A stretch of 16,608 nucleotides of DNA from positions 1 to 16,608 of the IMG/VR virus record IMGVR_UViG_3300037473_000239, one strand, 5' to 3'. The notes below the pieces were generated by a model. It saw nothing but the letters and a program-made list of their open reading frames with translations. It made no database searches and had not been told where the DNA came from. This DNA is from a virus. The position numbers and the translations under genes are program-made. Each line of letters starts with the position of its first letter. Within the stretch, counting starts at the first letter, position 1. Below, piece after piece: positions 2,612 through 16,608 of this stretch.

Positions 2612-2626
2612 GAGGACCGAGGCCCT

Positions 2627-3061
2627 GTGAGCACGTACATCCGTAAGGACCTGGCCGGGGCGAAGGTCCTCGGCGCGGCGAAGCTGACCCTGAACGCGGC
2701 CAGCACCAGCAACTTCGACTTCGGCACGCCGGACGACATCAACCTGGCGACGAACGCGAACTACCGGCCGGGCGATCGGGTCATGGCCGTGTTCACCGGC
2801 ACGACCGGCGGCACGACCAACACCCTGACCTGGTCGGTCCAGGACGCGGACGACTCGTCCGGGTCGATCGGCACCCCGGCCACCGCTGTGACCGACGTCG
2901 TCTACGGCGGCCTATCGGGCGGCACCGGCGACGACTTCACGGTCGTGGCGGTCGAGGTGCAGAACGGCCGTCCGTGGCTGCGGTTCCGGGCGACCGGTAA
3001 CGGCACCACGGACACGTTCGCCCTGGCGTGCGTCGTCCTGTCCATCCCGGTCGACCTGTAG
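2627..3061 (+). CDS. Hypothetical virion protein; possibly head decoration or an accessory capsid protein
   Basis: 144 aa, GTG start, high GC3. The composition is Thr/Gly/Ser-rich and beta-like, with no catalytic motifs. The function is inferred only from its position between the capsid and head-tail adaptor genes. Confidence 0.55.
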   Translation: MSTYIRKDLAGAKVLGAAKLTLNAASTSNFDFGTPDDINLATNANYRPGDRVMAVFTGTTGGTTNTLTWSVQDADDSSGSIGTPATAVTDVVYGGLSGGTGDDFTVVAVEVQNGRPWLRFRATGNGTTDTFALACVVLSIPVDL

Positions 3062-3092
3062 CCGGCCGAAACCGTAAAGAAGGGAGGCGGTC

Positions 3093-3677
3093 GTGACCTG
3101 GGCACCGGACTACGTCACGTTGACGGAGCTGAAGGACTACCTCCGTAACAACGCCCTGGGCGAAGACGTGGCCGACGACGCCTTCTTGGCGCTCTGGATC
3201 ACGACCGTTTCCCGCAACATCGATGACTTCTGCGGACGCCAGTTCGGGCAGGTCGCCACGCTGGAGACCCGCGAATACCGGGCGGCGTACGACCGGCACG
3301 AGGGCGGCTACTTCGCAGAGATCGACGACGTACAGGACGTCGATGACCTGACCGTCATCGACGAGAACGCGAACACCATCACCGACTACACCCTTCTGCC
3401 GCTGAATGCCTCGCAGAAGGGCAAGCCCTACACGCGCATTCGGGTGCCCGGCTGCGGCCCGTTCACCATCGACGCGCTCTGGGGCTGGACCGCCGTGCCC
3501 TCCTCGGTGAAGACCGGCCTCTTTCTCCAGGGCGCACGGCTGGACAACCGGCGTAGCTCGCCGTTCGGGATTGCCGGTTCGCCCTCGGAGGGCTCCGAGA
3601 TGCGCCTTCTGGCCCAGCTCGATCCGGACTTCCGGACCTCGCTGAAGCCATACGTGCGGGACTGGTGGGCGGCATGA
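3093..3677 (+). CDS. Head-tail adaptor (gp6-like head-tail connector family)
   Basis: GTG start preceded by AAGGGAGG. The N-terminal LTELKDYLR motif is typical of gp6-like connectors. The C-terminal WGWTAVPSSVK...DPDFRTSLKPYVRDW resembles actinophage head-to-tail adaptors. Confidence 0.7.
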   Translation: MTWAPDYVTLTELKDYLRNNALGEDVADDAFLALWITTVSRNIDDFCGRQFGQVATLETREYRAAYDRHEGGYFAEIDDVQDVDDLTVIDENANTITDYTLLPLNASQKGKPYTRIRVPGCGPFTIDALWGWTAVPSSVKTGLFLQGARLDNRRSSPFGIAGSPSEGSEMRLLAQLDPDFRTSLKPYVRDWWAA

Positions 3678-4087
3678 ACCTCGACGACGTGGCCGAGGAA
3701 ATGCGGAACGCTCTGGCCACCATCGACGGCCTACGGGTCGCGCAGTGGGGCGCAGGCAGCGTCTCGGCTCCCGCCGGGCTGGTCGGGCTTCCGGTGCGCA
3801 TCGACTACGACGACACCTACGTACGCGGCTCCGACCGGTACCCCGACCTGGAGGTCTACGTCCTGGTCGACAAGCCCCAGGACCGGTCGACGCGCAAGCG
3901 CCTCGCCCAGTACGCGGCGGGTGCCGGGGACAAGAGCGTCAAGCAGGCCATCGAGTCGTACGAGTTCACCAGCTGCGACAAGGACTCCGTGCGGGTCGTC
4001 TCGTGCGAGTTCGAAGAGGTCAAGTACGCCGGGATTCCTTACCTGGCAGCGATTTTCCACGTCGACCTGACCGGCGACGGCGAGTAG
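3674..4087 (+). CDS. Neck or tail-completion protein (head-tail stopper or tail-terminator position); function not recognised
   Basis: Coupled to the upstream gene by an ATGA start/stop overlap; the track's alternative start is GTG at 3665. 137 aa, located between the adaptor and major tail protein genes. Confidence 0.55.
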   Translation: MNLDDVAEEMRNALATIDGLRVAQWGAGSVSAPAGLVGLPVRIDYDDTYVRGSDRYPDLEVYVLVDKPQDRSTRKRLAQYAAGAGDKSVKQAIESYEFTSCDKDSVRVVSCEFEEVKYAGIPYLAAIFHVDLTGDGE

Positions 4088-4097
4088 GGAGGCAACC

Positions 4098-4502
4098 ATG
4101 TCCAAGCCGCACGGCAAGAACACGGTCATCACGGTGGCCACCAAGGACATCAGTCCGTACACGAAGACCTCGACGTACACCCGGTCGGCGAAGAGCCACG
4201 ACACCACCGGCTACGGCGTCGACGACGAGGACTACGAGGCTGGCCTCAAGGGCGGCAAGTTCTCCATGGGCGGCACCTACGACAACACCGCCTCGGTCGG
4301 CCCGCGCAACGCCCTGCACGGGCTCGTCGGCACGAAGGTCGCCGTGGTCCGCAAGACCGAGGGCACCGGCACCGGCAAGCCGCAGGACACCTTCTCGATG
4401 GTCCTGGAGAGCTACGTCGAGACCAACCCGCACGACGACATGATCTCGTGGACCGCCGAGGGCACCATCGCTGGCGGCGTCACCACGACGGCTCAGAGCT
4501 GA
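4098..4502 (+). CDS. Major tail (tube) protein
   Basis: 134 aa with a strong RBS (GGGAGGCAACC-ATG). It lies immediately upstream of the chaperone pair. The composition is beta-rich and Thr/Gly-rich, as in small siphovirus tube proteins. Confidence 0.7.
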   Translation: MSKPHGKNTVITVATKDISPYTKTSTYTRSAKSHDTTGYGVDDEDYEAGLKGGKFSMGGTYDNTASVGPRNALHGLVGTKVAVVRKTEGTGTGKPQDTFSMVLESYVETNPHDDMISWTAEGTIAGGVTTTAQS

Positions 4503-4509
4503 GTCGGCG

Positions 4510-4827
4510 ATGGCGAACCTGACGCGCGAGCAGATCCTGGCCCGCAAGACCGGCAAGGGGAAGGCGACGCTGCCCGACGGCACGACCGTGGCGATCCGGG
4601 CGCTGACCCGCGACGAGGTCCTAGAGAGCCAGGAAATGGACAGCCTGGCCGATCGGGACAACTTCATCATCGCGACCGGCGTGACCGACCCGAAGCTGAC
4701 CGTCGAAGACGTGGCCGCGTGGGCGGCCTCGGGCGACGCGGGCGACCTCACCACCGTTACCGACGCGATCGCCGAGCTGTCCCGGCTGAAGCAGGGTGCC
4801 GGGAAAAGCAGCGTGGCTGGAGCTTGA
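4510..4827 (+). CDS. Tail assembly chaperone (gpG-like, zero-frame product)
   Basis: 105 aa and acidic, immediately downstream of the major tail protein. Its 3' end overlaps a second ORF in another frame at a GGGAAAA run. Confidence 0.65.
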   Translation: MANLTREQILARKTGKGKATLPDGTTVAIRALTRDEVLESQEMDSLADRDNFIIATGVTDPKLTVEDVAAWAASGDAGDLTTVTDAIAELSRLKQGAGKSSVAGA

Positions 4828-5005
4828 CGACGATCCGGAACTGGAGTTCGAGTTCCGGCTGGCGAAGGACCTCGGCATGACCGTCCGCCGACTGCGGACG
4901 GAGATGGACAACAGCGAGTTCATCGTCTGGTCCCGCTACTACATGCGGCGAGACGCGGATAAGGAGCTGGCCGCGCAGCAGGCCGCGCAGAGGGCAGGAG
5001 GGTAG
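4802..5005 (+). CDS. gpT-like extension of the tail assembly chaperone. The predicted fusion product spans 4510..~4806 joined to ~4808..5005 through a net +1 frameshift.
   Basis: The frame-2 ORF overlaps the end of 4510-4827 and there is no convincing RBS for its GTG at 4796. The text LAKDLGMTVRRLRTEMDNSEFIVWSRYY resembles the T portions of actinophage chaperones. A slippery GGGAAAA lies at 4801-4807. Confidence 0.5.
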   Translation, partial: GKAAWLELDDDPELEFEFRLAKDLGMTVRRLRTEMDNSEFIVWSRYYMRRDADKELAAQQAAQRAGG

Positions 5006-5008
5006 TAG

Positions 5009-5434
5009 ATGGCCGAGATCGTGCAGATCACGGGCATTCGCGAGTTGAACGCTGCCCTGAAGCGGGTCGACGCCGAGCTTCCCAAGGGTGTGCGTGTCGC
5101 GCTGAACGAGGGCGTCGAGAAGTTGGCCGGCTATATCCGACCGCAGATCCCGACAGACACCGGCGCGGCCCGGCAGAGCGTCAAGCCCGGATCGACCCGT
5201 ACGGCCGCCAGGCTGCGCGTCGGCGGCGCGAAGGCCCGTTACTACCCCTGGCTCGACTTCGGTGGCCAGGGACGCCGCAAGGGCCGTCCCGCGCACCGCC
5301 CGTTCATCTCCGAAGGCCGCTACGTCTACCCGACGCTGCGCAAGCGGAAGCCCGAACTGATCGACGACCTAAACAACGCCATCGCGGGCGTGATCCGTGG
5401 TGCTGGGCTGGAGGTGACCACCGATGGCGGGTAA
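5009..5434 (+). CDS. HK97 gp10-family neck or tail-completion protein
   Basis: The pattern ITGIRELNAALKRV...IPTDTGAARQSV...YYPWLDFGG matches the gp10 family as I recall it (G..el...L, P.DTG, Y...efG). The ATG lies 4 nt after the stop of the T frame. Confidence 0.6.
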   Translation: MAEIVQITGIRELNAALKRVDAELPKGVRVALNEGVEKLAGYIRPQIPTDTGAARQSVKPGSTRTAARLRVGGAKARYYPWLDFGGQGRRKGRPAHRPFISEGRYVYPTLRKRKPELIDDLNNAIAGVIRGAGLEVTTDGG

Positions 5435-6389
5435 CAACACCCTCACCGTGACGATCGCCGGGGAGTCCAAGGGAGCCGAGGACGCGTTCGCCCGCGTCGG
5501 CACCAGCGCCAAGGACATGGACACGAAGGTCCGTGACACCCACGACAGCTTCGACAAGGTCGGCGAGAAGGCCGACGAGGTCGACACCAAGGCGATGGGG
5601 TTCCGCGACACCCTCACCGGTATCCAGGACTCCACCAAGGGCATCAAGGACATCGCCTCCGGCAACTTCGGGTTCGAGTCGCTGCTGACCCTGGGTGCCG
5701 GTATCGGCGACCTGGGCTCCGGCATGTTCAACTTCCTGGTGCCCGCGTTCGGGGCCGTCACCACGGCGGTCCAGGGCATGAACCTTGCGTTCCTGTCGTC
5801 GCCGATCTTCTGGATCATCGCCGCGATCGTGGTCCTCATCGGGATCATCGTGCTGATCGCCACCAAGACCGATTGGTTCCAACGGGCGTGGAAGGCGTCG
5901 TGGGGCTGGATCAAGGACGCCGCAGGCGCGGCCTGGGACTGGATCAAGACCAAGGCGGTCGCCGTCTGGGACTGGCTGAAGAGCATCCCCGGCATGCTGA
6001 AGACGGCCTTCGGGAAGGTCGCCGACATCCTCATCGCGCCGTACAAGTTCGCGTTCAACACGATCGCGAAGCTGTGGAACGCCACCATCGGCAGCCTGTC
6101 GTGGACCGTGCCCGGCTGGATCCCGGGCATCGGCGGCAACACGATCAGCGTGCCGAAGCTGCCCACCTTCCACTCCGGCGGCACCGTGCCCGGCTTTCCC
6201 GGGCAGGCCGTACCCATCATGGCCATGGCGGGCGAGCAGGTGTCGGCCAACGGGAGCGGCGGGCGCGGCGGCACGGTCTACGTGCGTGGTGATGGCCTGG
6301 TCGACTACCTGATTGAGGCGATTGCGGGTGAGGTTCGTCGTCGCGGCGGTGACCCTGGTGCTCTGGGTATCGGTGGTTCCGGTGCCTAA
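5424..6389 (+). CDS. Tape measure protein (unusually short, 321 aa)
   Basis: RBS GGAGGTG lies 8 nt upstream of the ATG. The N-terminus is helical and is followed by two hydrophobic segments (FNFLVPAFGAVTTAV, PIFWIIAAIVVLIGIIVLIA). Trp repeats recur every 11 aa (SWGWIK/AWDWIK/VWDWLK), and a Gly-rich C-terminus contains PTFHSGGTVPG. The gene sits upstream of the tail-tip genes. Confidence 0.8.
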   Translation: MAGNNTLTVTIAGESKGAEDAFARVGTSAKDMDTKVRDTHDSFDKVGEKADEVDTKAMGFRDTLTGIQDSTKGIKDIASGNFGFESLLTLGAGIGDLGSGMFNFLVPAFGAVTTAVQGMNLAFLSSPIFWIIAAIVVLIGIIVLIATKTDWFQRAWKASWGWIKDAAGAAWDWIKTKAVAVWDWLKSIPGMLKTAFGKVADILIAPYKFAFNTIAKLWNATIGSLSWTVPGWIPGIGGNTISVPKLPTFHSGGTVPGFPGQAVPIMAMAGEQVSANGSGGRGGTVYVRGDGLVDYLIEAIAGEVRRRGGDPGALGIGGSGA

Positions 6390-9000
6390 GCAGGATCTCG
6401 CCCTTGAGCTGTACTACTCCGGGTCGTGGCATGACGTCGCCACCGACGACAAGGTGTTCGCAGACGCCCCGGTGACGATCCGGCGCGGCCTGGGTGACGA
6501 GTCCGGCGGCTGGCCGCGACCCGCGACCATCACCGCCCGCCTCGACAACGCCAGCGACAAGTACCGCACCTCTAATCCCGAGTCGCCGCTGTACGGGCTG
6601 GCCGGGCGGAACACGCCGATGCGGGCCTCTGTCGGTGGCACCGTGCGGGGCATCGTCGAGGCGTCCAGTTGGTCGGCCGACCAGACCCCCGACTTCCGCG
6701 CCTCGCCTCGCCGGGGGAAGGCGTGGGTCGATGTGAACGGCGGCGGTGTGCTCCAGCGCATCGGCCAGTGGAACCAGCCGCTCCGGTCGGCGCTCTACCG
6801 GTACGTCGACAAGAGCGGCGTGACCCCGGCCGAGTGGTGGCCGATGGAGGACGCCTCCGGCTCGGCGACGGCCGCCTCCGCAGCGGGCGGCTCGCCGCTC
6901 ACCCCGGTCACGGCCGTGCGGTACACGCTGCCCGACGGAAACCCGCTGCCGCCGGGCGGAGCGCCGAAGTTCGCCGACGGCGCGGGCATCACCGGGTCGG
7001 ACAAGCTGCCGAGCTTCCAGGGCGGCGGCACGCTGTCCGCGCCCGTGCGCAGCGCCAGCTTCAACGGGTACGCCATCGATTGGGTAATGCAGTTCGCTGC
7101 GGGTACCGACGACGGCGGCACGAGTTCGGCGGACGTGCTCCGCTGGCGCGAGTCCGGCACCTACGTGATGTTCACCGTCAACGTGGTCAAGAACAACATC
7201 ACCGTGGTCCACTCCAACGCGGCCGACGCTGTGACCCTAACCGGGACCGGCTCGGCGTCAGCGACGTTCGACGTCTACGACGGTGCACCGCACCACTTCC
7301 GCTACCAGGTGCGCCAGAGCGGCGGCAACTACCTGGCCCAGCTGCTCATTGACAGCTCTGTGGTTGCCACCGCCGACAACTTCACCCCGGGCATGACCGG
7401 CACCGTCGGACGGCCCACACAGATCGAATGGAACCCGGGGGAGCAGCGCGGCGACTACATGCCGACGGCTGCCGGGCACCTGATCGTCTGGGCCTCCGGG
7501 CAGCTCGGCGGACAGCCGGCCGTTTTCTACGCCCTCAACGGGTACGCAGGCGAGCGCACCGCCTACCGGTTTTCCCGCCTCCTCACCGAGGAGGGCATCG
7601 CCTGCTACGTCAGTGCCAGTTTCGACGACTCGATGCCGATGGGACCGCAGCGGCCCGACTCCCTGCCCAACCTGGTCAAGGAGTGCCTCACCACCGAGGA
7701 CGGCCTGGTCTATGACCACGGCACCGATCTGCGCCCGCTCTTCCTGTGCCGGGCCGACCGGTACAACCAGACGCCGAAGCTCGACCTCGCCCCGACGGAC
7801 CTGACGGTCCTGCCGAAGGAGGTCAACGACGACAAGCTGGCCGGGAACGTGGTCACCGCCTCGCAGCGCGACGGCGGGGACTCGACGGCCCGGGATGACA
7901 CCGGCCCGCTCGGCACCCAGCCGCCCCCGGACGGGGCCGGTGAGGAGAAGCGGACCGTCAACGTCAACCTCAACGACCCGGACGACGACCTGCCGCAGGT
8001 GGCCAACTGGTGGCTCAAGAGGGGGACCGTCGACCTCCCCCGGTTCCCGCAACTCACGATCGACCTGAACGCCAACCCGGGTCTGGTCGCCGATGTGGAG
8101 GCGATCAAGCCAGGCGACGTGATCACGCTGACCGGGTTCCGGGAGAACGTCATCCGGCTGATCGTGCTCGGCTGGACCGAGACGATCGGCACCCATACCC
8201 GCACCATCGTCTTCACCTGCGTGCCCGACCAGCAGTTCCAGGTGGGCGTCTGGGACTCCACGTCGAGCCGGTGGGATTCCAGTTCCACGATGCTGGTGGG
8301 CTCGCTGACCACCAGCGGCACAGCGGTGAAGATCGGCACCACGTCCCCCAATGAGTCGTGGTCCACCGCCGGTGTGCCGTACGACGTGATGGTGTCCGGC
8401 GAGCGCATGACCGTGACGGCGATGGGCGCGACCACGACCGACGCGACGCTGAGCGCGAACGGATTCGAGAGTGGCGTCGGTGGCTGGCAGAGCAGCAACG
8501 GCACGCTGACGCAGTCCAGCACGTTCGCCAATTCCGGCAGCTTCAGCGGCCTGCTCACCGTTACCGGCTCTCCCGTCGAGGCCAACATCCGCAAGGCGTT
8601 CGCGAGTTGCCCGCGCGTGGTGCCCGGCCAGGAGTACACGCTGAGCACGTTCGTGCGTTCCGTCGCGACGATCACCGCAGCGTGTCACATCGACTGGCTG
8701 GACGAGAACGGCGTGTTCCTGTCGCGCAACGGCACCAGTGGCTCGCTGTCGTCCGGCGCGTGGGCTTCTCGGGTGGTCACCGCGACGGCACCGGCAGGGG
8801 CCGCCTACGCCCAGTACGGGGCGACGATCAGCGGCTCCCCGGTGGCCGGAACTCTGCTCTACGCCGACGACCTGGTATTGACGGCTACGACGATCCGCTA
8901 CCAGACAGCAACGCTCACGCGCAGCGTGAACGGCATCGTCAAGGCGCAGACCCCCGGCACCCCTGTCCACGTAGCTACCCCCGGGAGGTGGGCGCTGTGA
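6382..9000 (+). CDS. Minor tail / tail-tip protein: distal tail protein (Dit)-like N-terminus and a C-terminal CBM_4_9-like carbohydrate-binding domain. Probable receptor-binding protein.
   Basis: One continuous ORF. The start is uncertain: candidates are GTG 6328, 6373 and 6382, while the track's TTG 6313 would overlap the tape measure gene by 77 nt. N-terminal ATITARLDNASDKYRTSNPESPLYGLAGRNTPMR resembles Dit-type tail proteins. The C-terminal ~144 aa (nt ~8455-8886) reads NGFESGVGGWQSSNGTL...YADDLVL, typical of the CBM4/9 beta-sandwich. Confidence 0.8.
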   Translation: MPKQDLALELYYSGSWHDVATDDKVFADAPVTIRRGLGDESGGWPRPATITARLDNASDKYRTSNPESPLYGLAGRNTPMRASVGGTVRGIVEASSWSADQTPDFRASPRRGKAWVDVNGGGVLQRIGQWNQPLRSALYRYVDKSGVTPAEWWPMEDASGSATAASAAGGSPLTPVTAVRYTLPDGNPLPPGGAPKFADGAGITGSDKLPSFQGGGTLSAPVRSASFNGYAIDWVMQFAAGTDDGGTSSADVLRWRESGTYVMFTVNVVKNNITVVHSNAADAVTLTGTGSASATFDVYDGAPHHFRYQVRQSGGNYLAQLLIDSSVVATADNFTPGMTGTVGRPTQIEWNPGEQRGDYMPTAAGHLIVWASGQLGGQPAVFYALNGYAGERTAYRFSRLLTEEGIACYVSASFDDSMPMGPQRPDSLPNLVKECLTTEDGLVYDHGTDLRPLFLCRADRYNQTPKLDLAPTDLTVLPKEVNDDKLAGNVVTASQRDGGDSTARDDTGPLGTQPPPDGAGEEKRTVNVNLNDPDDDLPQVANWWLKRGTVDLPRFPQLTIDLNANPGLVADVEAIKPGDVITLTGFRENVIRLIVLGWTETIGTHTRTIVFTCVPDQQFQVGVWDSTSSRWDSSSTMLVGSLTTSGTAVKIGTTSPNESWSTAGVPYDVMVSGERMTVTAMGATTTDATLSANGFESGVGGWQSSNGTLTQSSTFANSGSFSGLLTVTGSPVEANIRKAFASCPRVVPGQEYTLSTFVRSVATITAACHIDWLDENGVFLSRNGTSGSLSSGAWASRVVTATAPAGAAYAQYGATISGSPVAGTLLYADDLVLTATTIRYQTATLTRSVNGIVKAQTPGTPVHVATPGRWAL

Positions 9001-9473
9001 CCGTCCTCGCTGGTAACCCGACGTACGCCTCGGACGTGAACGCCGACGTCGCCAAGGCATCGCTCGGCCGGATCGCCCAGACCGACGCCACCGCGAACGC
9101 GGCGGCCACCAGCGGTACCACTGAGCTGGCCGTGGACCAGGTGACGATCAGCGCGGTCAACGGCTACCGCTACAAGATCACGTGGAACATGTCGTTCACC
9201 GGAACCGTCGTCGCTGACACCTTCCTGTTCCGGATCCGGCTGGGTTCCGGCACCGGCGGTAGCCAGTTGGTCTACACGTGCCCGGCAATCCCGTTCAACT
9301 CCGGGAACCAGGCAACCGTGCGCCAGGTGATGGTTACCGAATGGACCGCCAGTTCCACCGCGTCGCAGACCTTCACCGCCACGGTGGTGCGCAACTCCGG
9401 CACGGGTACCGCCACGGTGACCGCCGCGAGTTCAGCCCTGCGCACGCTCTCCGTCGACTACGTCTCCGGCTGA
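8997..9473 (+). CDS. Minor tail protein (hypothetical)
   Basis: GTGA start/stop overlap with the upstream gene, with GGGAGGT 8 nt upstream. 158 aa, Thr/Ser/Ala-rich and beta-like. It is the last gene of the tail module. Confidence 0.6.
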   Translation: MTVLAGNPTYASDVNADVAKASLGRIAQTDATANAAATSGTTELAVDQVTISAVNGYRYKITWNMSFTGTVVADTFLFRIRLGSGTGGSQLVYTCPAIPFNSGNQATVRQVMVTEWTASSTASQTFTATVVRNSGTGTATVTAASSALRTLSVDYVSG

Positions 9474-9482
9474 GGGGCCACC

Positions 9483-9806
9483 ATGAACAAGCTCACCTGG
9501 CCCGCTGTGGGTCTCATCGCGGTCCTCGGCGGGATCGCGGTCCTGCTGGCCACCCTGGCGCACTGGGACGCCGGGGCGATCCTCGGCGTCCTCGGCATCC
9601 TCGGCGGCATCGGCGGCGGTGCGGCGGTGGCGGGGGGAGTGGCCGGGAAGGTGGAGGAGGTCCACGCCCAGACAGCGGCGCAGACCTCCCAGCTCGACAC
9701 CATCGAGCGGCAGACGAACGGCATGTCGACCGCCGAGAAGCAGGACATCGCCGAGCGGGCGGCAGCCGCCGCCATCGCCGCGATGCACCGCGAGGAAGGC
9801 CGCTAG
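9483..9806 (+). CDS. Holin-like small membrane protein (2 predicted TM helices, charged C-terminal tail)
   Basis: 107 aa. TM1 is WPAVGLIAVLGGIAVLLATLA and TM2 is AILGVLGILGGIGGGAAVAGGVAG, followed by a polar, charged coil. The RBS is GAGGGG and the gene sits after the tail genes. No similarity search was performed. Confidence 0.5.
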   Translation: MNKLTWPAVGLIAVLGGIAVLLATLAHWDAGAILGVLGILGGIGGGAAVAGGVAGKVEEVHAQTAAQTSQLDTIERQTNGMSTAEKQDIAERAAAAAIAAMHREEGR

Positions 9807-9991
9807 CGGTCGCCCTGCGGCGAGTACCGCACCCAGCCTGGACCCGAACCGCTGTCCACCCAGACGTCCGAGCCCTCGCCAGCCTCCACAAGCGCCCTCA
9901 TGTAGGCGAAGCCCAGGGACAGATCCTCGTCGTCCTCGCGTATGTCGAGCTGTGGTTCTCCGTCGTCCGGCTGCGTCAAGGTCCACTTCAT
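9803..9991 (-). CDS. Small, highly acidic hypothetical protein (62 aa) in a moron-like position
   Basis: Minus-strand ORF. The internal ATG at 9991 is preceded by GGAG-N6, whereas the upstream ATG at 10018 lacks an RBS. The sequence is MKWTLTQPDDGEPQLDIREDDEDLSL.... Its stop overlaps the holin-like gene's stop in the tetranucleotide CTAG (9803-9806). Confidence 0.5.
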   Translation of the reverse strand: MKWTLTQPDDGEPQLDIREDDEDLSLGFAYMRALVEAGEGSDVWVDSGSGPGWVRYSPQGDR

Positions 9992-10118
9992 GCCCGGCTC
10001 CAAACTGCAAATGTGCATCCTGTGTTGACATGGAGGTTAGTCCGTATCAACCCCTTAGCCCATACCCCTTAGACCGTTTGCGTCATATCAAGATCACAGG
10101 CTGTCTACGTTCTGGGGT

Positions 10119-10328
10119 ATGGCCAAGGCCGAGGAGCTGTACCCGATGGGCGCGGAGGAGATCCGCCAGCGCCTCGGCGTCAGCGTGCAGCGGGCGTACA
10201 TCATCGTGGGCCGCAAAGACTTCCCCGACCCGTGGCGGCAACTCGCACGCGGCAAGGTGTGGCGCTCCACCGACGTCGAAGCCTGGATCAAGGAGCACCG
10301 GCCCGAACTGGCCGAAGGCAACTCCTAA
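10119..10328 (+). CDS. Helix-turn-helix DNA-binding protein, excisionase/MerR-like family; possible recombination directionality factor or regulator
   Basis: 69 aa. The text GAEEIRQRLGVSVQRAYIIVGRKDFPDPWRQLARGKVWRSTDVEAWI fits the excisionase-type wHTH pattern (HTH, then a basic wing, then W...V..W). The gene is immediately upstream of the integrase. Confidence 0.7.
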   Translation: MAKAEELYPMGAEEIRQRLGVSVQRAYIIVGRKDFPDPWRQLARGKVWRSTDVEAWIKEHRPELAEGNS

Positions 10329-10386
10329 GGCTGTCTTGGCGCGACCTTTGTCAGCTCGAAAGTGACGCTGTGACATACTTACCGGC

Positions 10387-11772
10387 ATGACTGCGACGTG
10401 CGCGATCTACTGCCGCATCTCCAAGGACCGCACCGGTGCTGGCCTGGGCGTCGAACGCCAGGAGAACGAATGCCGCGAGCTGGCCGCCCGGCTCGGCCTG
10501 ACCGTGACTGCGGTCTACACGGACAACGACCTCTCGGCCTACTCCGGCAAGACCCGGCCCGGCTACCGCCTCCTGCTGGCCGAGATCCAGGCCGGGCGGG
10601 TCAGTGCCGTGCTCGCCTGGCACACCGACCGCATCCACCGCTCCCCGGCCGAGCTTGAGGAGTACATCGCGGCCTGCGAACAGCGAGGGGTCCCGACGCA
10701 CACCGTCAAGGGCGGAACGCTCGACCTGACCAGCGCCAGCGGCCGGATGACCGCCCGCATCGTCGGTGCGGTCGCCCGCCAGGAGGTCGAGCACCAGATC
10801 GAACGGCAGCAGTCCAAGAAGCGGGAGACCGCCGCCGCAGGCAAATGGGGAGGCGGGCGACGCCCGTACGGCTACGAGGCCGACGGCGTCACCGTCCGGC
10901 CCGACGAGGCCCGCATTGTAGCCGAGGCCACCGACAAGATCCTGCTCGGAACAAGCCTCCGGTCGTACACGGCCAAGCTGAAGGAGGCCGGACAGCTCAC
11001 GTCGACCGGACGGCAGTGGGTGCCGACCGAGCTGAAGAAGGTGCTCATCCGGCCCCGCAACGCCGGTCTGCGCGAACACCGGGGCCAGATCATCGGCAAG
11101 GCCGAGTGGGAACCCATCGTCGCCGAGGAGAAGTGGAGGGCGGTCCGGGCGATGATGGCCGACCCGGCCCGGCGCACCACGACCGGCTCAGCGCGCAAGT
11201 GGCTGCTCTCCGGGATCGCGACGTGCGGCATCTGCGGGTCGCCCGTGCGCGCGGTCACCATGCACACCACCCGGGCAGGCGTGGCCTCGTACGCCTGCGT
11301 GGCGTCGAAATGCGTGGTGCGCAACGCGGCCGAGATGGACCGGTACGTCGAGCTGGTGACCGTCGAGCGGCTGAAGCGGCCCGACACCCTCGACCTGATG
11401 CGTCCGGCGTCACCTGCGATCGACCTGCCCGCGCTGATCGCCGAGGAGAACAACCTGCGGGAACGCCTCGACACCCTGGCCGACGACCTCGACCTTGACG
11501 AGCGGACCCTTGCCCGGCGGTCTCAGCGGCTGCGTGAGCGCCTGGAGGAGATCGGTGTGCACAAGGCGGAGGCCGGGCGCGGATCGCCGCTCTCCGGCGT
11601 TGTGGACGCACCCGACGTGCAGGCCGCATGGAACCGCCTCGACCTCGACCGCAAACGCGCCATCATCAACCTCCTGATGACGATCCGGGTCATGCCCGCC
11701 CGGAAAGGCCGCCCGGCAGGCTGGCAGCCCGGTGCGTCGTACTTCGACCCGGCCACCATCGACATCACGTAG
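10387..11772 (+). CDS. int: Large serine recombinase (phage integrase)
   Basis: The N-terminal resolvase domain carries the catalytic serine context AIYCRISKDR and LAWHTDRIHRS. A recombinase domain follows (GGGRRPYGYE). A zinc ribbon (CGICGSPV...YACVASKC) and a C-terminal coiled coil (NNLRERLDTLADDLD...RLRERLEEI) complete the protein. 461 aa. Confidence 0.92.
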   Translation: MTATCAIYCRISKDRTGAGLGVERQENECRELAARLGLTVTAVYTDNDLSAYSGKTRPGYRLLLAEIQAGRVSAVLAWHTDRIHRSPAELEEYIAACEQRGVPTHTVKGGTLDLTSASGRMTARIVGAVARQEVEHQIERQQSKKRETAAAGKWGGGRRPYGYEADGVTVRPDEARIVAEATDKILLGTSLRSYTAKLKEAGQLTSTGRQWVPTELKKVLIRPRNAGLREHRGQIIGKAEWEPIVAEEKWRAVRAMMADPARRTTTGSARKWLLSGIATCGICGSPVRAVTMHTTRAGVASYACVASKCVVRNAAEMDRYVELVTVERLKRPDTLDLMRPASPAIDLPALIAEENNLRERLDTLADDLDLDERTLARRSQRLRERLEEIGVHKAEAGRGSPLSGVVDAPDVQAAWNRLDLDRKRAIINLLMTIRVMPARKGRPAGWQPGASYFDPATIDIT

Positions 11773-11800
11773 CCATTAGTCAGTTCGGAATAGACAAAGG

Positions 11801-11826
11801 GGCCCACATAGATGTGGGCCTTTTTG
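11801..11826 (+). terminator. Rho-independent terminator downstream of int
   Basis: The arm GGCCCACAT (11801-11809) pairs perfectly with ATGTGGGCC (11812-11820) and is followed by TTTTT (11821-11825). The terminator lies 29 nt after the int stop. Confidence 0.7.
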
Positions 11827-11849
11827 ATGTGCTTGTGGTGCACGTCACA

Positions 11850-11935
11850 GCGAATTGTCAATTGTTAGTTGACGGGCCGTATCACGTTGTCGGGTTAACG
11901 TTCTGGTGTTCGCGGAGGAGGATCCAGCGAACACC
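11850..11935. promoter_or_regulatory. Regulatory region between int and the early operon; candidate promoter/operator and/or attP
   Basis: The stretch is locally AT-richer. It holds an inverted repeat GTCAA-N7-TTGAC (11857-11873) and the pairing TTGTCA (11855-11860)-19 nt-TATCAC (11880-11885). There is also a perfect 9 bp inverted repeat, GGTGTTCGC (11905-11913) with GCGAACACC (11927-11935), around a GGAGGAGGATCCA spacer. Confidence 0.3.
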
Positions 11936-11970
11936 CACCACAAATCTCCGCCCGGAGAAATGGACGCACC

Positions 11971-12180
11971 GTGCGCACCAAAGTCGACCCTGACGTTGTC
12001 AAAGTCAGGGCCAAGCTCGGCACCGCTGTTCGAGAAAAGAACGCCGACCTTGAAGCTCAGTACCGCCAGGAATTGCACGACCTGAACATCATCGTTGCGG
12101 CCAAGCGGGTCGCAGCCCGACTCCCCGAACTGACTCCGGAGAAGCGCGAGCAGATCCGCGCGTTGCTCGGCGGTGCCTAA
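11971..12180 (+). CDS. Hypothetical small protein (69 aa), first gene of the early operon
   Basis: GTG start with GGAG 13 nt upstream. GC3 is moderately high. Its stop overlaps the next ATG as TAATG. No motif was recognised. Confidence 0.5.
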   Translation: MRTKVDPDVVKVRAKLGTAVREKNADLEAQYRQELHDLNIIVAAKRVAARLPELTPEKREQIRALLGGA

Positions 12181-12827
12181 TGGCGCGGGATGGGGGTTCC
12201 CGGCCTGCGGGTAACAGGCCGGGAACCGATCCCAGCGTAGACCGCTTCATCATGGTGCCGGTCGACGTCATGCACTACGTCGCCAAGGGACTCAGCCCAA
12301 CGGCCGCATGGCTCTACGTGGTGCTGCTCAGCCACCACAACCGCAAGCGCGAGGACAACGACGTGTGGCCGTCCCGCAAGTCGCTGGCCGAGGCTTTGGG
12401 GCTGAAGAAGGTCGACAACGTCGACAGGTACCTGCGCGAGCTGAGCGACTCGGGGCTTATCAAGTCTCGTCGCCGTGCGGGAGGCGTAAAAGGCGACGGC
12501 GTCGCGAATCAGACCAGCGTGTACACGCTCCTGCTAACCGTTAAGCCCGAAAGGCCCAAAGCGCAGGAGACGGCCCCCCCACCCCCTTCTGCGGGGGCAC
12601 CCCACCCCCATCAATGGGGTTACCCCCACCCCCATGAATCGGGTAACCCCACCCCCGCAGAAGGGACACGAACTAGAGGAAGTGAACTAGACGAATCTGA
12701 ACTAGATGAAATGAACAACAGTTGGCCCCCCCTCGCTTCGCTCGGCACCCCCCAAGGGGTGCACGACGACGAAACCGAAGTTGTCGAAGCCGAAATCGGC
12801 AATTGGGCTGACCCGTGGGCCAGCTAG
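12180..12827 (+). CDS. Winged-helix DNA-binding protein; putative replication initiator or replisome organiser
   Basis: The N-terminal text FIMVPVDVMHYV...LSPTAAWLYVVLLSHHN...WPSRKSLAEALGLKKVDNVDRYLRELSDSGLI is typical of phage and plasmid wHTH initiator N-domains. A Pro/His-rich linker and an acidic C-terminus follow. The linker coding DNA carries the iteron-like array. An alternative start is ATG 12252. Confidence 0.6.
   Translation: MARDGGSRPAGNRPGTDPSVDRFIMVPVDVMHYVAKGLSPTAAWLYVVLLSHHNRKREDNDVWPSRKSLAEALGLKKVDNVDRYLRELSDSGLIKSRRRAGGVKGDGVANQTSVYTLLLTVKPERPKAQETAPPPPSAGAPHPHQWGYPHPHESGNPTPAEGTRTRGSELDESELDEMNNSWPPLASLGTPQGVHDDETEVVEAEIGNWADPWAS
12574..12720. repeat. Putative origin of replication inside the initiator gene: four ~23-24 bp iteron-like units followed by an AT-rich block with three GAACTAGA repeats
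   Basis: CCCCACCCCC occurs at 12577, 12600, 12624 and 12647. Each copy is followed by N6-7 and a G-run, giving internal dyads (CCCCC-ttctgc-GGGGG, CCCCC-atcaat-GGGG, CCCCC-atgaatc-GGG, CCCCC-gcagaa-GGG). Units 2 and 3 are 21/24 identical, and units 1 and 4 form a 14 bp inverted repeat (CCCTTCTGCGGGGG / CCCCCGCAGAAGGG). GAACTAGA occurs at 12670, 12684 and 12699 in the most AT-rich coding stretch. Confidence 0.55.
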
Positions 12828-12884
12828 CTCCTCGGCGAGAACTTCAAAAGCGCACCGACAACGAGACCCGGAAGGGCACCAGCC

Positions 12885-13289
12885 ATGAGTAATCCGTTCA
12901 AGCCTGGCCACCAGGTGAACCTTCACCACGGTCATGCCATCACCGGCGACTTCTCGCCGACGTACCAGACCTGGCGGTCGATGCGCGCCCGCTGCCGCCC
13001 CACCGGCAAGTACGGGCTGCGAGGCATCACCGTCTGCGACAGGTGGGCCGACTTCGGGGCATTCCTGGCCGACATGGGCGAACGCCCGCCCGGAAAGACC
13101 ATCGACCGCATTAACAACGACGGCAACTACACGCCGGACAACTGCCGGTGGGCCACGCCGAAAGAGCAGGCAGCCAACCGTCGCCGCCCTGGCCCGCCTT
13201 CCGCAGAAACGCGGGCGCGTATCTCACTCAGGCTCCGCGCAAGGAACGCCCAGGCCCGACTCATCGCCGCCCTGACCGCAGCGGCATAA
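12885..13289 (+). CDS. HNH_3/AP2-like DNA-binding protein (degenerate HNH-related); function uncertain
   Basis: 134 aa. The pattern YQTWRSMRARC...GITVCDRWADFGAFLADMGERPPGKTIDRINNDGNYTPDNCRWATPKEQAAN recurs in phage proteins usually annotated as HNH-like. The first His position is Arg here, so the protein may be non-catalytic. Confidence 0.5.
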   Translation: MSNPFKPGHQVNLHHGHAITGDFSPTYQTWRSMRARCRPTGKYGLRGITVCDRWADFGAFLADMGERPPGKTIDRINNDGNYTPDNCRWATPKEQAANRRRPGPPSAETRARISLRLRARNAQARLIAALTAAA

Positions 13290-13325
13290 CCACCCACGCA
13301 ACAACCGAGAGAAGGAGCGCCAGCC

Positions 13326-13559
13326 GTGAAGCACATCAACTTCAACCTCCCCTTCGGCGCGCGGACCGACATGCGCGTCAAGCAGGACAGCGCCCTCAGC
13401 CGCGCCCACGACATCGCCGCAGCAGCCGAAAAGCTCAGCCTCGAAGTCGCCGACCTCGGAGACCGCGTCACCACCATCACCGCATCACTCAAGGCGCACC
13501 ACGTCGCCATCGCCGACCTGGTGCAAATGCTCACCGACGAAGCCGACGACCAGGAATAA
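13326..13559 (+). CDS. Hypothetical 77 aa helical protein, paralog A, with C-terminal LTDEADDQE
   Basis: GTG start preceded by GAAGGAG-N8. The sequence is predicted to be helical or coiled-coil. Its 3' 30 nt are identical to the 3' end of the next gene. Confidence 0.55.
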   Translation: MKHINFNLPFGARTDMRVKQDSALSRAHDIAAAAEKLSLEVADLGDRVTTITASLKAHHVAIADLVQMLTDEADDQE

Positions 13560-13569
13560 GGGAGAGATC

Positions 13570-13803
13570 ATGCGCACCGAAACCCGCACCGCTCTGGAGT
13601 TGCACAAGGAGCACCTGACTGGCTGCGTCGAACGGCTCCGGACCGAACTGGAGAAGGACACGGCGCAGTGGACTGATCGCCTCGCGAGGCGGACCGGAGA
13701 TTTGGCCGATGCTGAGGCTCAGTTGGCTGCAATCACCGCCGACCTCGATGAGCCTTCGACCGTCGTCACCACGCTCACCGACGAAGCCGACGACCAGGAA
13801 TAG
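13570..13803 (+). CDS. Hypothetical 77 aa helical protein, paralog B, with C-terminal LTDEADDQE
   Basis: ATG preceded by GGGAGAG. It is the same length as paralog A and has the same last 9 residues. The body is coiled-coil-like (LRTELEKDTAQWTDRLARRTGDLADAEAQLAAI). Confidence 0.55.
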   Translation: MRTETRTALELHKEHLTGCVERLRTELEKDTAQWTDRLARRTGDLADAEAQLAAITADLDEPSTVVTTLTDEADDQE

Positions 13804-13808
13804 CCGCC

Positions 13809-14075
13809 ATGAGCAAGGCATGGGCCGGAGGCAGCGACACACGCTGGCGTCGCTTCCGGCTCACCATCCTGGAGAGAGACCGATGGCTCTGCACACTCAA
13901 GCTGGACGTCTGCACCACAACAGCCCAGCACGTACACCACGTCATCCCGCTGGCCAGGGGCGGAGCCAAGTACGACCCGGGCAACTGCACCAGCGCATGC
14001 GCAGCGTGCAACCTCAAGCTCGGCGACAGAGCACCGACACCACAACCCGAACCACGACCCACATCCTCATGGTGA
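13809..14075 (+). CDS. HNH endonuclease (packaging-associated type)
   Basis: 88 aa. The beta-beta-alpha-metal motif has paired cysteines: WLCTLKLDVC...HVHHVIPLARGG...DPGNCTSACAACN. Confidence 0.85.
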   Translation: MSKAWAGGSDTRWRRFRLTILERDRWLCTLKLDVCTTTAQHVHHVIPLARGGAKYDPGNCTSACAACNLKLGDRAPTPQPEPRPTSSW

Positions 14076-14161
14076 TCGACTGGGCACCCACGTTCCTGCC
14101 CGCACTCATCCTCTGCGCCCTCGGATTCCGATGGGGCACGGAATTCGTCGTGACCTTCTGA
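14069..14161 (+). CDS. Possible 30 aa hydrophobic micro-ORF (very tentative)
   Basis: The ATG overlaps the HNH stop (ATGGTGA). It encodes MVIDWAPTFLPALILCALGFRWGTEFVVTF, which would form one TM-like helix. There is no independent support. Confidence 0.2.
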   Translation: MVIDWAPTFLPALILCALGFRWGTEFVVTF

Positions 14162-14228
14162 AAAGTTGACGGGCTGTGGCCCACCGAACACCCGCTGATC
14201 TGTTTTTTTGTGTGCGAGTTTCCCCAGC

Positions 14229-15743
14229 TCAGGCGGCCGGACCGAGCTTCTTGATTCCGCGGGCCAGGTGCACTGCGGCGGCCATGCCGTACACGGTGTC
14301 AATCGGGGCCTTGCCGCGCCGCGCGAATCGCCATCCATCGCCCTGTGGTAGCTGCTGGGCCTGCTTTACCTGCTCGTTCATGAGCGGGTCGTGGGCGTGG
14401 CGGAACTGCCCGGCGGCAACCTGCTCTTCTAGGCCCATGCAGGCGCGTACGACGTCCTCGGCGCGGATGGGTTCGAGGAGGACGTTGCGGATTCGCTTGG
14501 TGGCGAATTCGTCGGCTACGGACTGAGCCGGCCCACCGGCGATCCAGCCGACCTTGCGTGGCTTGATGCGCTCGACCCATCCGGGCAGGTCACGGCGCAG
14601 CTCCTTCCGGCATTCGTAGCCGTTCCACGCTGCCACGACCTCACCCCAGACGAGGTCGCCGACCTTGACGGCGGCCAGGAGGCTTGCGTGGGAGTAGTCC
14701 TGCGCAACCTCGAAGGTCAGCGCCACCTCGCGGCGGTGATTGGCCAGGTCGATGAAGTCGGCCCGCTGGACGCCGCAGGCGTTCCAGTCCTCCAGCCGGA
14801 TCGCCGCCTTCAGCAGATCGACGCGCTGGCACATGATTTCGATCTTGAACCGGGCCAGGGTCTCGCCCCCGGCGGCTATCGCGACCCTGGCTTGCCCGAG
14901 GAGCGCATCCAGTTCGATCCCGTCCCCCAGGCTCGGGTTGGCCTGTGCGAGCGCGTCCACGTCGTCAGGGTCGGTCCCGGTGGGCGCGCTCCACGCGGCC
15001 AGGAAGACTCGCTGATCCCCCTCGCCGGTGAGGATGGTTGCATGCGCCGCGTCGTATTCCTCGTGCAGCACAACGGATTCGGCGTCGCCCTCGTTCGAGA
15101 TGCACACCAGAAGGCCGTCGGGTACCGCGTTCTGGGCGGGCACGATCGCATCCCACGTGTCGCGGTTCCGGTGCTCGCGCAACTCGTCCAGGAGCGCCCG
15201 GTCCACCGTGTCACCGCGCCCGGCCCGGCGGGTCGGGGCCGAGAAGCGGTAGTGGGAGCCGTAGTCGTTCCAGAAGTCCTCTTCGCCGATCTGTAGCGCG
15301 GTGTGTCGGGACGGCAGGGCGGCGGCCAGCACCTCGGTCCGCTCGGCCATCTCGACGACCTTCTTCCATGACCGCTTGGCGGCGGCCCGGTCGGTGGAGG
15401 TCGCCACGATTTCCGTGACCCGCTCGACGAACATCCAGTAGAGGATCAGCAGCCGGGTAAAGAGGGTCTTCCCGTTCTGCCGGGCGATCAGGATGATCGC
15501 CTTCCGGTAGCGGGGGGACCCGTCTGGGAACAGCTCGCCCAGCCGGATGGCCAGGCGGTGCTGCCATTCGCGCAGCGGCCAGCCGATCAGCGTGCAGAAG
15601 TCGGAGAAGTGGTAGCCCCAGGAAGACTCAGGGTTGGTCCAGAGGTCGTCACGTAGCGGTGGCGTGACCGTCGTCGGCTCGACGCTGCCCAGCACGGGCG
15701 CGCCGGGCAGCAAGCTGGTCCAGAGGGTTTCCGGCTGGGACAT
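14229..15743 (-). CDS. terL: Terminase large subunit (Terminase_1 / HK97-like family)
   Basis: 504 aa on the minus strand. It has Walker A (IARQNGKT), Walker B (RALLDELRE) and a C-terminal nuclease-like region. A strong RBS (GGAGGTGAAGG) precedes the ATG at 15743. Confidence 0.92.
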   Translation of the reverse strand: MSQPETLWTSLLPGAPVLGSVEPTTVTPPLRDDLWTNPESSWGYHFSDFCTLIGWPLREWQHRLAIRLGELFPDGSPRYRKAIILIARQNGKTLFTRLLILYWMFVERVTEIVATSTDRAAAKRSWKKVVEMAERTEVLAAALPSRHTALQIGEEDFWNDYGSHYRFSAPTRRAGRGDTVDRALLDELREHRNRDTWDAIVPAQNAVPDGLLVCISNEGDAESVVLHEEYDAAHATILTGEGDQRVFLAAWSAPTGTDPDDVDALAQANPSLGDGIELDALLGQARVAIAAGGETLARFKIEIMCQRVDLLKAAIRLEDWNACGVQRADFIDLANHRREVALTFEVAQDYSHASLLAAVKVGDLVWGEVVAAWNGYECRKELRRDLPGWVERIKPRKVGWIAGGPAQSVADEFATKRIRNVLLEPIRAEDVVRACMGLEEQVAAGQFRHAHDPLMNEQVKQAQQLPQGDGWRFARRGKAPIDTVYGMAAAVHLARGIKKLGPAA

Positions 15744-15972
15744 CCTTCACCTCCCCGCGATGCGCGGCGGCCCGCGACCGGGGACTCATCTGCAACGCCT
15801 CCAGGGCGGCGAGGAGCGCTCCGGCGGTCCGGTAGTCCGCCTCGTCCTCGTCGATGCGCAGCGCGAGCGTCAGGGCAAGCTCAGCGGTCGCGACGTCGCT
15901 CGGAGCCGGTGGCTTCGCGGTTAGGGCAGCACGCACCGCCTTCTCCAGTGACCCCGCTCGCCGATACGTCAT
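15649..15972 (-). CDS. terS: Terminase small subunit (putative)
   Basis: 107 aa immediately upstream of terL on the minus strand. The text ELALTLALRIDEDE...LLAALEALQMSPRSR...NPLDQLAARRARAG resembles actinophage small terminases. The ATG at 15972 is preferred over 15999 because the 9 extra codons have poor GC3 and lie in the palindrome. The gene overlaps terL by 95 nt. Confidence 0.65.
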   Translation of the reverse strand: MTYRRAGSLEKAVRAALTAKPPAPSDVATAELALTLALRIDEDEADYRTAGALLAALEALQMSPRSRAAAHRGEVKDVPAGNPLDQLAARRARAGQRRADDGHATAT

Positions 15973-15985
15973 GAATGCAGCGTAC

Positions 15986-16001
15986 CTATGTACGTACATA
16001 G
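15986..16001. promoter_or_regulatory. Perfect 16 bp palindrome CTATGTACGTACATAG in the divergent terS/portal spacer; candidate operator
   Basis: The sequence equals its own reverse complement. It is flanked by TANNNT hexamers: AGCGTA at 15979-15984 (TACGCT on the minus strand, 6 nt before the terS ATG) and TAGCAT at 16007-16012 (7 nt before the portal ATG). Confidence 0.5.
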
Positions 16002-16019
16002 TGAGGTAGCATCGGCACT

Positions 16020-16608
16020 ATGAGGTGGCCGTGGTCGCGTCGGGCTGAGCAGCCCGCGAACACGTCGCTGTCCATCGCCGACCCCGCGCTGGCCGCCCTG
16101 TTCTCCCCTGGCTGCGTCGTAGACCTGGCCGGGGTAGAGGTGGGGGAGCAGTCCGCTCTCGGCCTCAGCGCCCTTTTCCGGGGCGTCTCGCTGATCTCCG
16201 GCACCCTCGCCTCGCTGCCGCTGCGGTCGCTGAACCTCGACGATTCCGGTGCGCCGCAACAGGTTCCGTCGGTTTTCGACGACCCGGACGGGCCGGACGG
16301 CCAGACGCCGTACGAGTGGAAAGAGACCCTGTTCGCGCACCTGGTGATTCACGGCCGGGCCGGAGCGCTGAGGGTCCGCAACGAGGCTGGCGGCATGGCC
16401 CGTCTGGCGCTGGTGCACCCGCTGTGCTTCTACCCGGAGCAGCCGACGCAGGAGGAGTACCGGACGGGCAGGCTGCCTGCGGGCGGGCTGTGGTTCCGGG
16501 TCAGCTTCGCCGACGGCACGCAGCGGAAGCTCGACGCTACCGACTTCTGGTACGTGCCCGCCCTGGCGATGACGCCCGGGTTCGGGCAGGGCCTGATGCA
16601 GCTTGCTC
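16020..16608 (+). CDS. Phage portal protein, N-terminal part. It is 3'-partial in the window and continues at nt 1 (128 in non-redundant numbering).
   Basis: ATG at 16020, with the frame open to the window end. The text EQSALGLSALFRGVSLISGTLASLPLRS is typical of portal N-termini. The last 127 nt duplicate the window start. Confidence 0.85.
   Translation, partial: MRWPWSRRAEQPANTSLSIADPALAALFSPGCVVDLAGVEVGEQSALGLSALFRGVSLISGTLASLPLRSLNLDDSGAPQQVPSVFDDPDGPDGQTPYEWKETLFAHLVIHGRAGALRVRNEAGGMARLALVHPLCFYPEQPTQEEYRTGRLPAGGLWFRVSFADGTQRKLDATDFWYVPALAMTPGFGQGLMQLA
16482..16608. repeat. 127 bp terminal overlap identical to 1-127 (circularisation signature of the contig)
   Basis: A base-by-base comparison of both ends shows they are identical. 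The repeat lies inside the portal reading frame and preserves the frame. Confidence 0.95.

Follow-up and report, generated by a model that had tools for sequence, protein, structure and literature searches.

In the textbook scheme, tailed phages need both a holin and an endolysin to lyse bacteria that have a wall. Host enzymes can contribute to the process: in pneumococcal phages, depolarisation of the membrane activates wall-bound host hydrolases (LytA); the phage lysin is retained, with the host enzyme as no more than a supplement. The locus described here shares much with canonical holin–endolysin cassettes (lambda S-R order; class II, S21), its membrane protein having the same two transmembrane (TM) helices, glycine-rich second helix and charged cytoplasmic tail, and its gene the same position, last in the late operon; the relatives' version of that gene also directly precedes a peptidoglycan hydrolase gene and overlaps with it. 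Unlike the canonical cassettes, the window—by which we mean the whole stretch of DNA analysed, 16,608 bases in length—carries no hydrolase gene at all, and its predicted holin bears no similarity to curated holin families; a complete holin–endolysin pair is not found here, a lysin adjacent to the holin being seen only in the loci of its homologues. The arrangement that we propose would differ from the pneumococcal case as well, in that all of the wall-cutting activity would come from the host or from a co-resident prophage.

A second comparison is with the Streptomyces satellites MulchRoom, MiniFlayer and Ando: elements of 13–17 kb that make their own capsids and use another phage for their missing late functions, lysis included (PMC10690885, PMC13587820), with MulchRoom and Ando also carrying an integrase (PMC10690885, PMC13587820). 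Like these, and like the capsid-forming PICIs, the window is a small actinobacterial element with its own capsid and without a lysis enzyme; it also has its own integrase, a serine integrase encoded at 10387–11772, accompanied by an excisionase-like gene. Unlike the satellites, it has a full tail (tube, chaperones, tape measure and tip), an initiator and likely origin of its own, and a holin. Where such satellites are marked by an absence of tail genes, their tails being provided by a helper, the terminator, major tail protein, chaperones, tape measure and tip are all present, and of the lysis genes it is the endolysin that is absent and the holin that is present. We saw no homology between the window and MulchRoom, MiniFlayer or Ando.

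A complete temperate phage of 16.5 kb

The two termini of the IMG/VR record share an identical 127 nt, such that the window closes to a circle of 16,481 bp, scored as 100% complete by CheckV. Its GC content is ~68%, and a megablast search of the whole circle against GenBank phages gave no match. A gene map, based on GC content by codon position combined with family searches (Pfam, PHROGs), contains the following features:

16020..774: portal protein, spanning the circle junction
755–1414: ClpP-type protease
1415–2611: major capsid protein
2627–3061: 144-aa head-region protein, with no family match
After the head genes: adaptor, tail terminator, major tail protein, tail chaperones and neck-like protein
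5424–6389, plus strand: short tape measure of 321 aa, matching several PHROG tape-measure families
6382–9000, plus strand: 872-aa tail-tip protein (reading frame open from 6313)
8997–9473, plus strand: 158-aa tail-tip protein
9483–9806, plus strand: 107-aa membrane protein with two TM helices, holin family
9804–10118: breakpoint and replacement segment, at the position of the relatives' endolysin
9803–9991, minus strand: small acidic convergent gene, 62 aa from its second ATG (the 71-aa reading frame reaches 10018)
10119–10328, plus strand: excisionase-like helix-turn-helix gene (phrog_66 at 7.7e-6)
10387–11772, plus strand: large serine integrase (Pfam Resolvase 2.9e-27, Recombinase 1.8e-10)
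12180–12827: O-like initiator
12885–13289 and 13809–14075: two separate HNH endonuclease genes
13326–13559 and 13570–13803: two tandem 77-aa helical paralogues
14229–15999, minus strand: terS-terL

The 16.5-kb element is a complete temperate phage. By Pfam and PHROGs, the window has, apart from the lysin, an intact complement of genes for the virion, packaging, integration and replication.

A holin-family gene at the end of the late operon

The open reading frame at 9483–9806 is a genuine gene, with an ATG start, the motif GAGGGG 6 nt upstream, and GC fractions at the three codon positions (0.75/0.53/0.94) typical of genes in the window. The initial annotation placed a protein with two TM helices and a charged tail here, where a lysis cassette would be expected, and that description is borne out both by hydropathy and by the cassettes of relatives. 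Kyte–Doolittle values peak at 2.33 (residues 7–25) and 1.87 (residues 31–49) on either side of a short AHWDAG segment, with the TM helices themselves corresponding to residues 7–25 and 31–54. The second helix is rich in glycine, containing a run of small-residue, GxxxG-like repeats, and is followed by a charged C-terminal tail of 52 aa (6 K+R, 9 D+E). We found 106 homologues, 94–119 aa in length, and the two-helix pattern is kept in the 25 that were aligned.

The gene sits directly 3′ of the tail genes, at the end of the late operon and not in the early/immunity region. Streptomyces phage Cumberbatch and closer relatives of the window have their lysis cassette in this same post-tail slot; gp18 of Cumberbatch is 28% identical to the 872-aa tail-tip protein, and an endolysin gene plus two small genes are found at the corresponding point. 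Against curated holin families, the 107-aa protein has no Pfam match at E<=0.01, and its sole PHROG match is to a family of unknown function (phrog_18885, E 0.003).

Genomic contexts for homologues were recovered from viral contigs, metagenomes and Actinoplanes genomes; a profile search of metagenomes with the holin alignment yielded at least four loci, and a second contig encodes a holin identical to that of the window. The dN/dS ratio is 0.30 for the window holin against its nearest homologue (in L008, an Actinoplanes sp. prophage), and 0.18 for another pair of family members (L012 against L009); on these values the holin is still under constraint.

Lysin genes coupled to the holin in relatives

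The gene after the holin has its start on, or only a few bases from, the holin stop codon in 13 distinct related loci, mostly through a TGATG overlap; in these relatives the holin family is normally coupled translationally to a gene for a zinc peptidoglycan peptidase. The partner takes one of two forms. In L014, L016, L019, L027 and L032 it belongs to Peptidase_M15_4 (Pfam to 1e-11; PHROG endolysin family phrog_1512 at 2e-29). In L008, L009/L013, L015/L022, L017, L018/L024, L020, L021, L023, L028, L029 and L030 it is instead a protein of 200–240 aa resembling the MT3 domain of VldE, which has no Pfam match even at E<=5 and matches just one PHROG, also of unknown function (phrog_32486). This second family is large, with 1,663 homologues at E<=0.001, every named one of which is ‘hypothetical’; it includes one fusion to PG_binding_1.

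A PDB sequence search with the partner-lysin profile returned nothing useful, and the relationship with VldE emerges at the level of predicted structure. The AlphaFold model (e.g. for L008:13384-14016; pLDDT 88.9) superposes on the MT3 catalytic domain of VldE with a VIA-align Z-score of 10.9 and an rmsd of 2.5 Å over 103/114 residues, as compared to 5.1 for the next unrelated match and 4.1 for the LAS enzyme MepA; Foldseek likewise pairs the two with a probability of 1.0, the catalytic domain alone being matched. LAS/MT3 zinc peptidases carry their ligands in an H-x(3-6)-D arrangement plus an H-x-H motif. Pneumococcal VldE is a zinc L,D-endopeptidase of the LAS fold, with zinc ligands H301, D308 and H375 and an H-x-H motif that includes the last of these (PMC11667670). 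Across 37 sequences of the phage-associated family H35, H42, D45, H111, H114 and H116 are invariant, and D41 nearly so; by alignment offsets, we infer that H35 would be equivalent to VldE H301, and H114/H116 to H373/H375. The relatives' partner protein thus has, by its model, the same fold as VldE (Spr1875) MT3 (PDB: 9fln, 9flm) at 20–22% sequence identity; unlike VldE, it is a phage or prophage protein with an added C-terminal helical domain, and it is not covered by a Pfam model. We consider that this family (L008:13384-14016, L006:12619-13287, L009:13164-13877) is probably a new catalytic family of endolysins. Its gene is found in the relatives and is absent from the window.

The slot after the tail genes, which in relatives is flanked by homologues of the excisionase gene, is strongly mosaic, holding three types of lysin and two unrelated holins: L006 has an MT3-type lysin 3′ of an unrelated 113-aa membrane protein, and L005 has an Amidase_2 lysin in the same place. 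The contents of the slot in these two genomes identify it as a mosaic lysis cassette, with the 107-aa family as its holin component. Since members of the family are paired with peptidoglycan peptidase genes in the relatives, they are best read as two-helix holins that serve small temperate siphoviruses, and prophages, in Actinoplanes and other Micromonosporaceae related to it; the 107-aa protein would be expected to form holes in the membrane.

Loss of the lysin gene in the window

When the window is compared to L008 by blastn, the two are 82% identical at the nucleotide level over 9484–9804, with the alignment ending at the holin stop codon. The junction in the window reads CGCTAGCGG and is without the overlapping ATG / TGATG of the relatives. 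From there, the 313 nt leading up to the excisionase gene hold a single convergent gene encoding an acidic protein of 62 aa. On this comparison, the peptidase gene has been lost from the window at a breakpoint lying exactly on the stop codon of the holin.

The convergent gene (9803–9991) shares a CTAG stop with the holin gene and has a GC3 of 0.83; its product is very acidic (14 D+E, 5 K+R), belongs to no Pfam or PHROG family, and has 14 homologues, mostly of ~62 aa, that start at residue 10 of the reading frame. Analogous small convergent genes follow the holin in L012 (7535–7819) and in the Actinoplanes chromosome G330 (L033:9271-9492). A scan of 9400–10450 for promoters and terminators found nothing.

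Searches for a peptidoglycan hydrolase elsewhere in the circle were uniformly negative. The called genes contain none according to Pfam, nor according to PHROGs, and nine to ten hydrolase families (Amidase_2, Amidase_3, Peptidase_M15_4, Glyco_hydro_25, CHAP, Peptidase_M23, NLPC_P60, SLT, Phage_lysozyme) found no match at E<=1 in six frames of the whole record. Searching the window by tblastn with the three lysin types found in the relatives gave noise only. Unfiltered MT3-like and M15_4 HMMs, together with phmmer using the Amidase_2 lysin, were also run against all six-frame segments, with a best E of 0.5; the positive controls for these lysin profiles (L005, L006 and L016) scored 1e-93 to 1e-206. 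The claim made from the sequence alone, that no endolysin exists anywhere in the circle, has therefore survived Pfam, PHROG, six-frame and relatives' lysin profile searches, and is strengthened by the finding that a lysin gene is joined directly to the holin stop in relatives and is missing from that point in the window. The accompanying expectation, that an actinobacterial phage should have at least a lysin A, proves too narrow: the enzymes of this phage group are either LAS-type zinc peptidases or Amidase_2.

One apparent exception was considered and set aside. The tape measure (5424–6389) matches an ‘endolysin’ PHROG, phrog_971; the match falls on the tape-measure-like part of a profile of 1338 positions, and the protein has neither a Pfam hydrolase domain nor a match to the MT3-type profile. 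Lacking support from any hydrolase family, this label was not counted.

Tail-tip and head-region proteins

Three proteins had been singled out by the initial annotation as places where a lytic domain might be concealed (6382–9000, 8997–9473 and 2627–3061). Profile searches of the hypothetical proteins, these three among them, detected no hydrolase, and each of the three has orthologues in relatives that also possess a separate lysin.

The AF2 model of the 158-aa protein (pLDDT 84) is all-beta, with a jelly roll like those of TNF and C1q, and its best Foldseek matches are a phage tail-fibre CBD, the TNF-like lectins PLTL and BC2L-C, and C1q heads. Orthologues are found in the lysin-bearing L008, L021 and L029, and an identical protein is encoded on a 12,730-nt contig; a search of viral contigs with the 158-aa protein produced no locus. 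By its predicted fold, this protein is probably a receptor-binding lectin and not a lysin.

The 872-aa protein matches phrog_5313 at 1e-120 and is 26–28% identical to tail-region proteins of Streptomyces phages. It has no Pfam match and no PDB sequence match, and no lytic domain was found in it; its neighbours in the protein atlas, both viral and actinobacterial, bear CBM_4_9 or Laminin_G_3 domains. To us it looks like a receptor-binding tail protein. A ‘phosphodiesterase’ label (phrog_24476) was discounted, being without support from Pfam.

Other genomes without the lysin

The lysin is missing from at least two further genomes as well. L011 and L012, which come from two separate IMG/VR datasets, are 100% identical over 8.5 kb, with the holin present and the lysin absent. 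Their holin of 103 aa is 77% identical to that of the window over the tblastn match and 74% over the full alignment; downstream lie ~780 nt with a small convergent gene, and then the excisionase and integrase. The L012 allele is closest to that of a lysin-bearing A. subtropicus prophage (L009; 83%), and the window's to that of L008 (82%). With two lysin-less holin alleles only 74% alike and having different nearest kin, it is suggested that the lysin-less state arose through separate losses or exchanges.

Two partial elements add to this picture. L003, the closest relative of the window in its tail genes (72–89% aa identity), lacks both holin and lysin ahead of the integrase gene: in L003:5020-6149, the ~470 nt from the analogue of the 158-aa protein to the serine integrase contain only tiny minus-strand reading frames with single hydrophobic stretches. 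In G330, a more distant homologue of the holin is followed by convergent small genes, and there is no lysin in the 20 kb examined around it.

Host and possible source of the enzyme

Holin homologues are present in 7/131 Actinoplanes species genomes, as against 2/301 sampled genomes of the host family, such that the host of the phage is probably a soil bacterium, either Actinoplanes or a close relative. Genomes of this genus can hold several lysins of the relevant type. G330 encodes two full-length MT3-type lysins (C1:3598480-3599148 and C2:4610-5155), the lysin-less holin lying 62 kb away from one of these; G001 also has two (including G001:C36:28218-28916), and a protein search found three MT3-type homologues in one 11.4-Mb chromosome. 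The presence of at least two full-length VldE-like lysins in single Actinoplanes genomes such as these points to polylysogeny with related prophages. By analogy with these genomes, co-resident lysins are a plausible source of a hydrolase acting in trans.

Discussion

The explanation towards which we lean, with modest conviction, is that the phage has kept its holin, has lost the peptidase coupled to it, has no other hydrolase in the circle, and is released by means of a hydrolase supplied in trans. With the peptidase lost and nothing else to replace it, complete virions would be made and the holin would permeabilise the membrane, with the peptidoglycan left uncut by the phage itself. The phage must then probably borrow the missing enzyme in order to leave its host, and holin-timed release with a hydrolase provided in trans would be the likeliest mechanism of exit. 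We infer two potential sources: the lysin of a related sibling prophage, co-induced in a polylysogen, or the host's own autolysins, turned on as the holin collapses the membrane potential—the latter an idea drawn from the pneumococcal LytA literature, in which depolarisation activates host enzymes of this kind. Reliance on a helper or the host was one of three accounts offered in the initial annotation; of these it has become the best supported, though still a putative one.

Rather more doubtful, and put forward only tentatively, is the broader proposition that the window belongs to a fully tailed, self-replicating and integrating lineage that is a natural ‘lysin-only’ parasite, using its holin as a timer and, routinely, a sibling prophage's or the host's hydrolase for exit, and that such lineages have had more than one origin among the phages of the Actinoplanes group. 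If helper-dependent, the element would borrow just one enzyme; were the proposition true, it would depend on a helper for less than any tailed phage so far described.

An alternative that we regard as unlikely holds that the window is a recently crippled, dead-end variant, its lysin removed by recombination or deletion, which excises, replicates and perhaps packages without release, and so will decay. A breakpoint placed exactly at a gene boundary, preceded by sequence with 82% nucleotide identity to a prophage that has its lysin, would fit such an event, and in a slot as strongly mosaic as this one (three lysin types, two unrelated holins) faulty exchanges are to be expected; the lysin-less forms could then be short-lived defective variants caught by metagenomics. 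This is difficult to square with a record that is a terminally redundant circle, complete by CheckV, in which no other gene for the virion, packaging, integration or replication is damaged, and in which the holin is intact with a dN/dS of about 0.3; moreover, absence of the lysin is seen more than once, together with different holin alleles (that of the window nearest to L008, that of L012 nearest to L009), and one such genotype was recovered identically from two datasets. We think it more improbable again that a hydrolase is present in unrecognisable form, either as a new fold in one of the small proteins or as a cryptic lytic activity of the virion that also serves exit. Several small reading frames do belong to no family (2627–3061, 9803–9991, 11971–12180, 13326–13559 and 13570–13803), and the lysin family of the relatives, which Pfam does not see and which is labelled no more than hypothetical, demonstrates that undetected lysin families exist in this phage group. 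The genome-specific frames, however, encode just 62–77 aa and are acidic or helical, and the six-frame search with hydrolase families gave nothing at E<=1; the notion of a cryptic domain in a virion protein is itself weakened by the orthologues of the three candidates that co-occur with a separate lysin, by the lectin-like jelly roll of the 158-aa protein, and by the grouping of the 872-aa protein with tail proteins that carry CBM_4_9/LamG domains.

Least probable, in our estimation, is that the 107-aa protein does not act here as a lysis holin, and has instead some other membrane role, such as superinfection exclusion or regulation of lysis, with exit needing no phage lysin. That it matches no curated holin family, just phrog_18885 at E 0.003, and that in three contexts its family is retained with no lysin gene beside it, would be compatible with such a role. 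The protein nevertheless conforms to the class II holins in its size, in having two helices with the second rich in glycine, and in its charged tail; its gene occupies the end of the late operon, outside the early and immunity regions, and at 13 loci members of the family overlap, stop to start, with one of two unrelated families of peptidoglycan peptidase. It is this conserved coupling to two unrelated types of lysin that makes a non-holin function, as had been suggested in the form of superinfection exclusion, the less likely.

A complete and otherwise intact phage genome that has a holin and is without any wall hydrolase is unusual, and this state recurs here in independent genomes. It offers a system in which to ask whether holin-driven depolarisation plus enzymes of the host or a neighbour can suffice for release from an actinomycete, and where the lower limit of helper dependence lies. 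Separately, a probable endolysin family with >1,600 homologues, a fold related to VldE/MT3 and no Pfam model is of consequence for both phage annotation and the mining of enzybiotics.

Additional features of the genome

The product of terS, in the 14229–15999 region, has a weak match to Terminase_6 (E 8e-5). In the window terS/terL are inverted relative to the portal gene; this inversion is shared with the 18.7-kb relative L006 (L006:1-1446; terL 61% identical), and is not seen in L008 or L010.

A 150-aa reading frame at 13709–14161 was examined as a possible gene; it has weak codon-position bias (GC3 0.68), overlaps the HNH gene at 13809–14075, which is supported by family matches and lies in another frame, and is probably not a gene. 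The two 77-aa paralogues (13326–13559 and 13570–13803) finish with the same LTDEADDQE, for which the coding DNA is a 30-nt exact repeat.

Replication modules differ between the small-phage relatives: L006 has a D5_N/DUF5906 primase-helicase (L006:16051-17457), L012 an AAA_25 protein (L012:11366-12493) and the window its O-like initiator, indicating that the early region is strongly mosaic. Inside the initiator gene, at 12576–12656 of the window, there are three CCCCCACCCCC-type repeats with a spacing of 23–24 nt, which likely represent a replication origin embedded within the gene for its own initiator.
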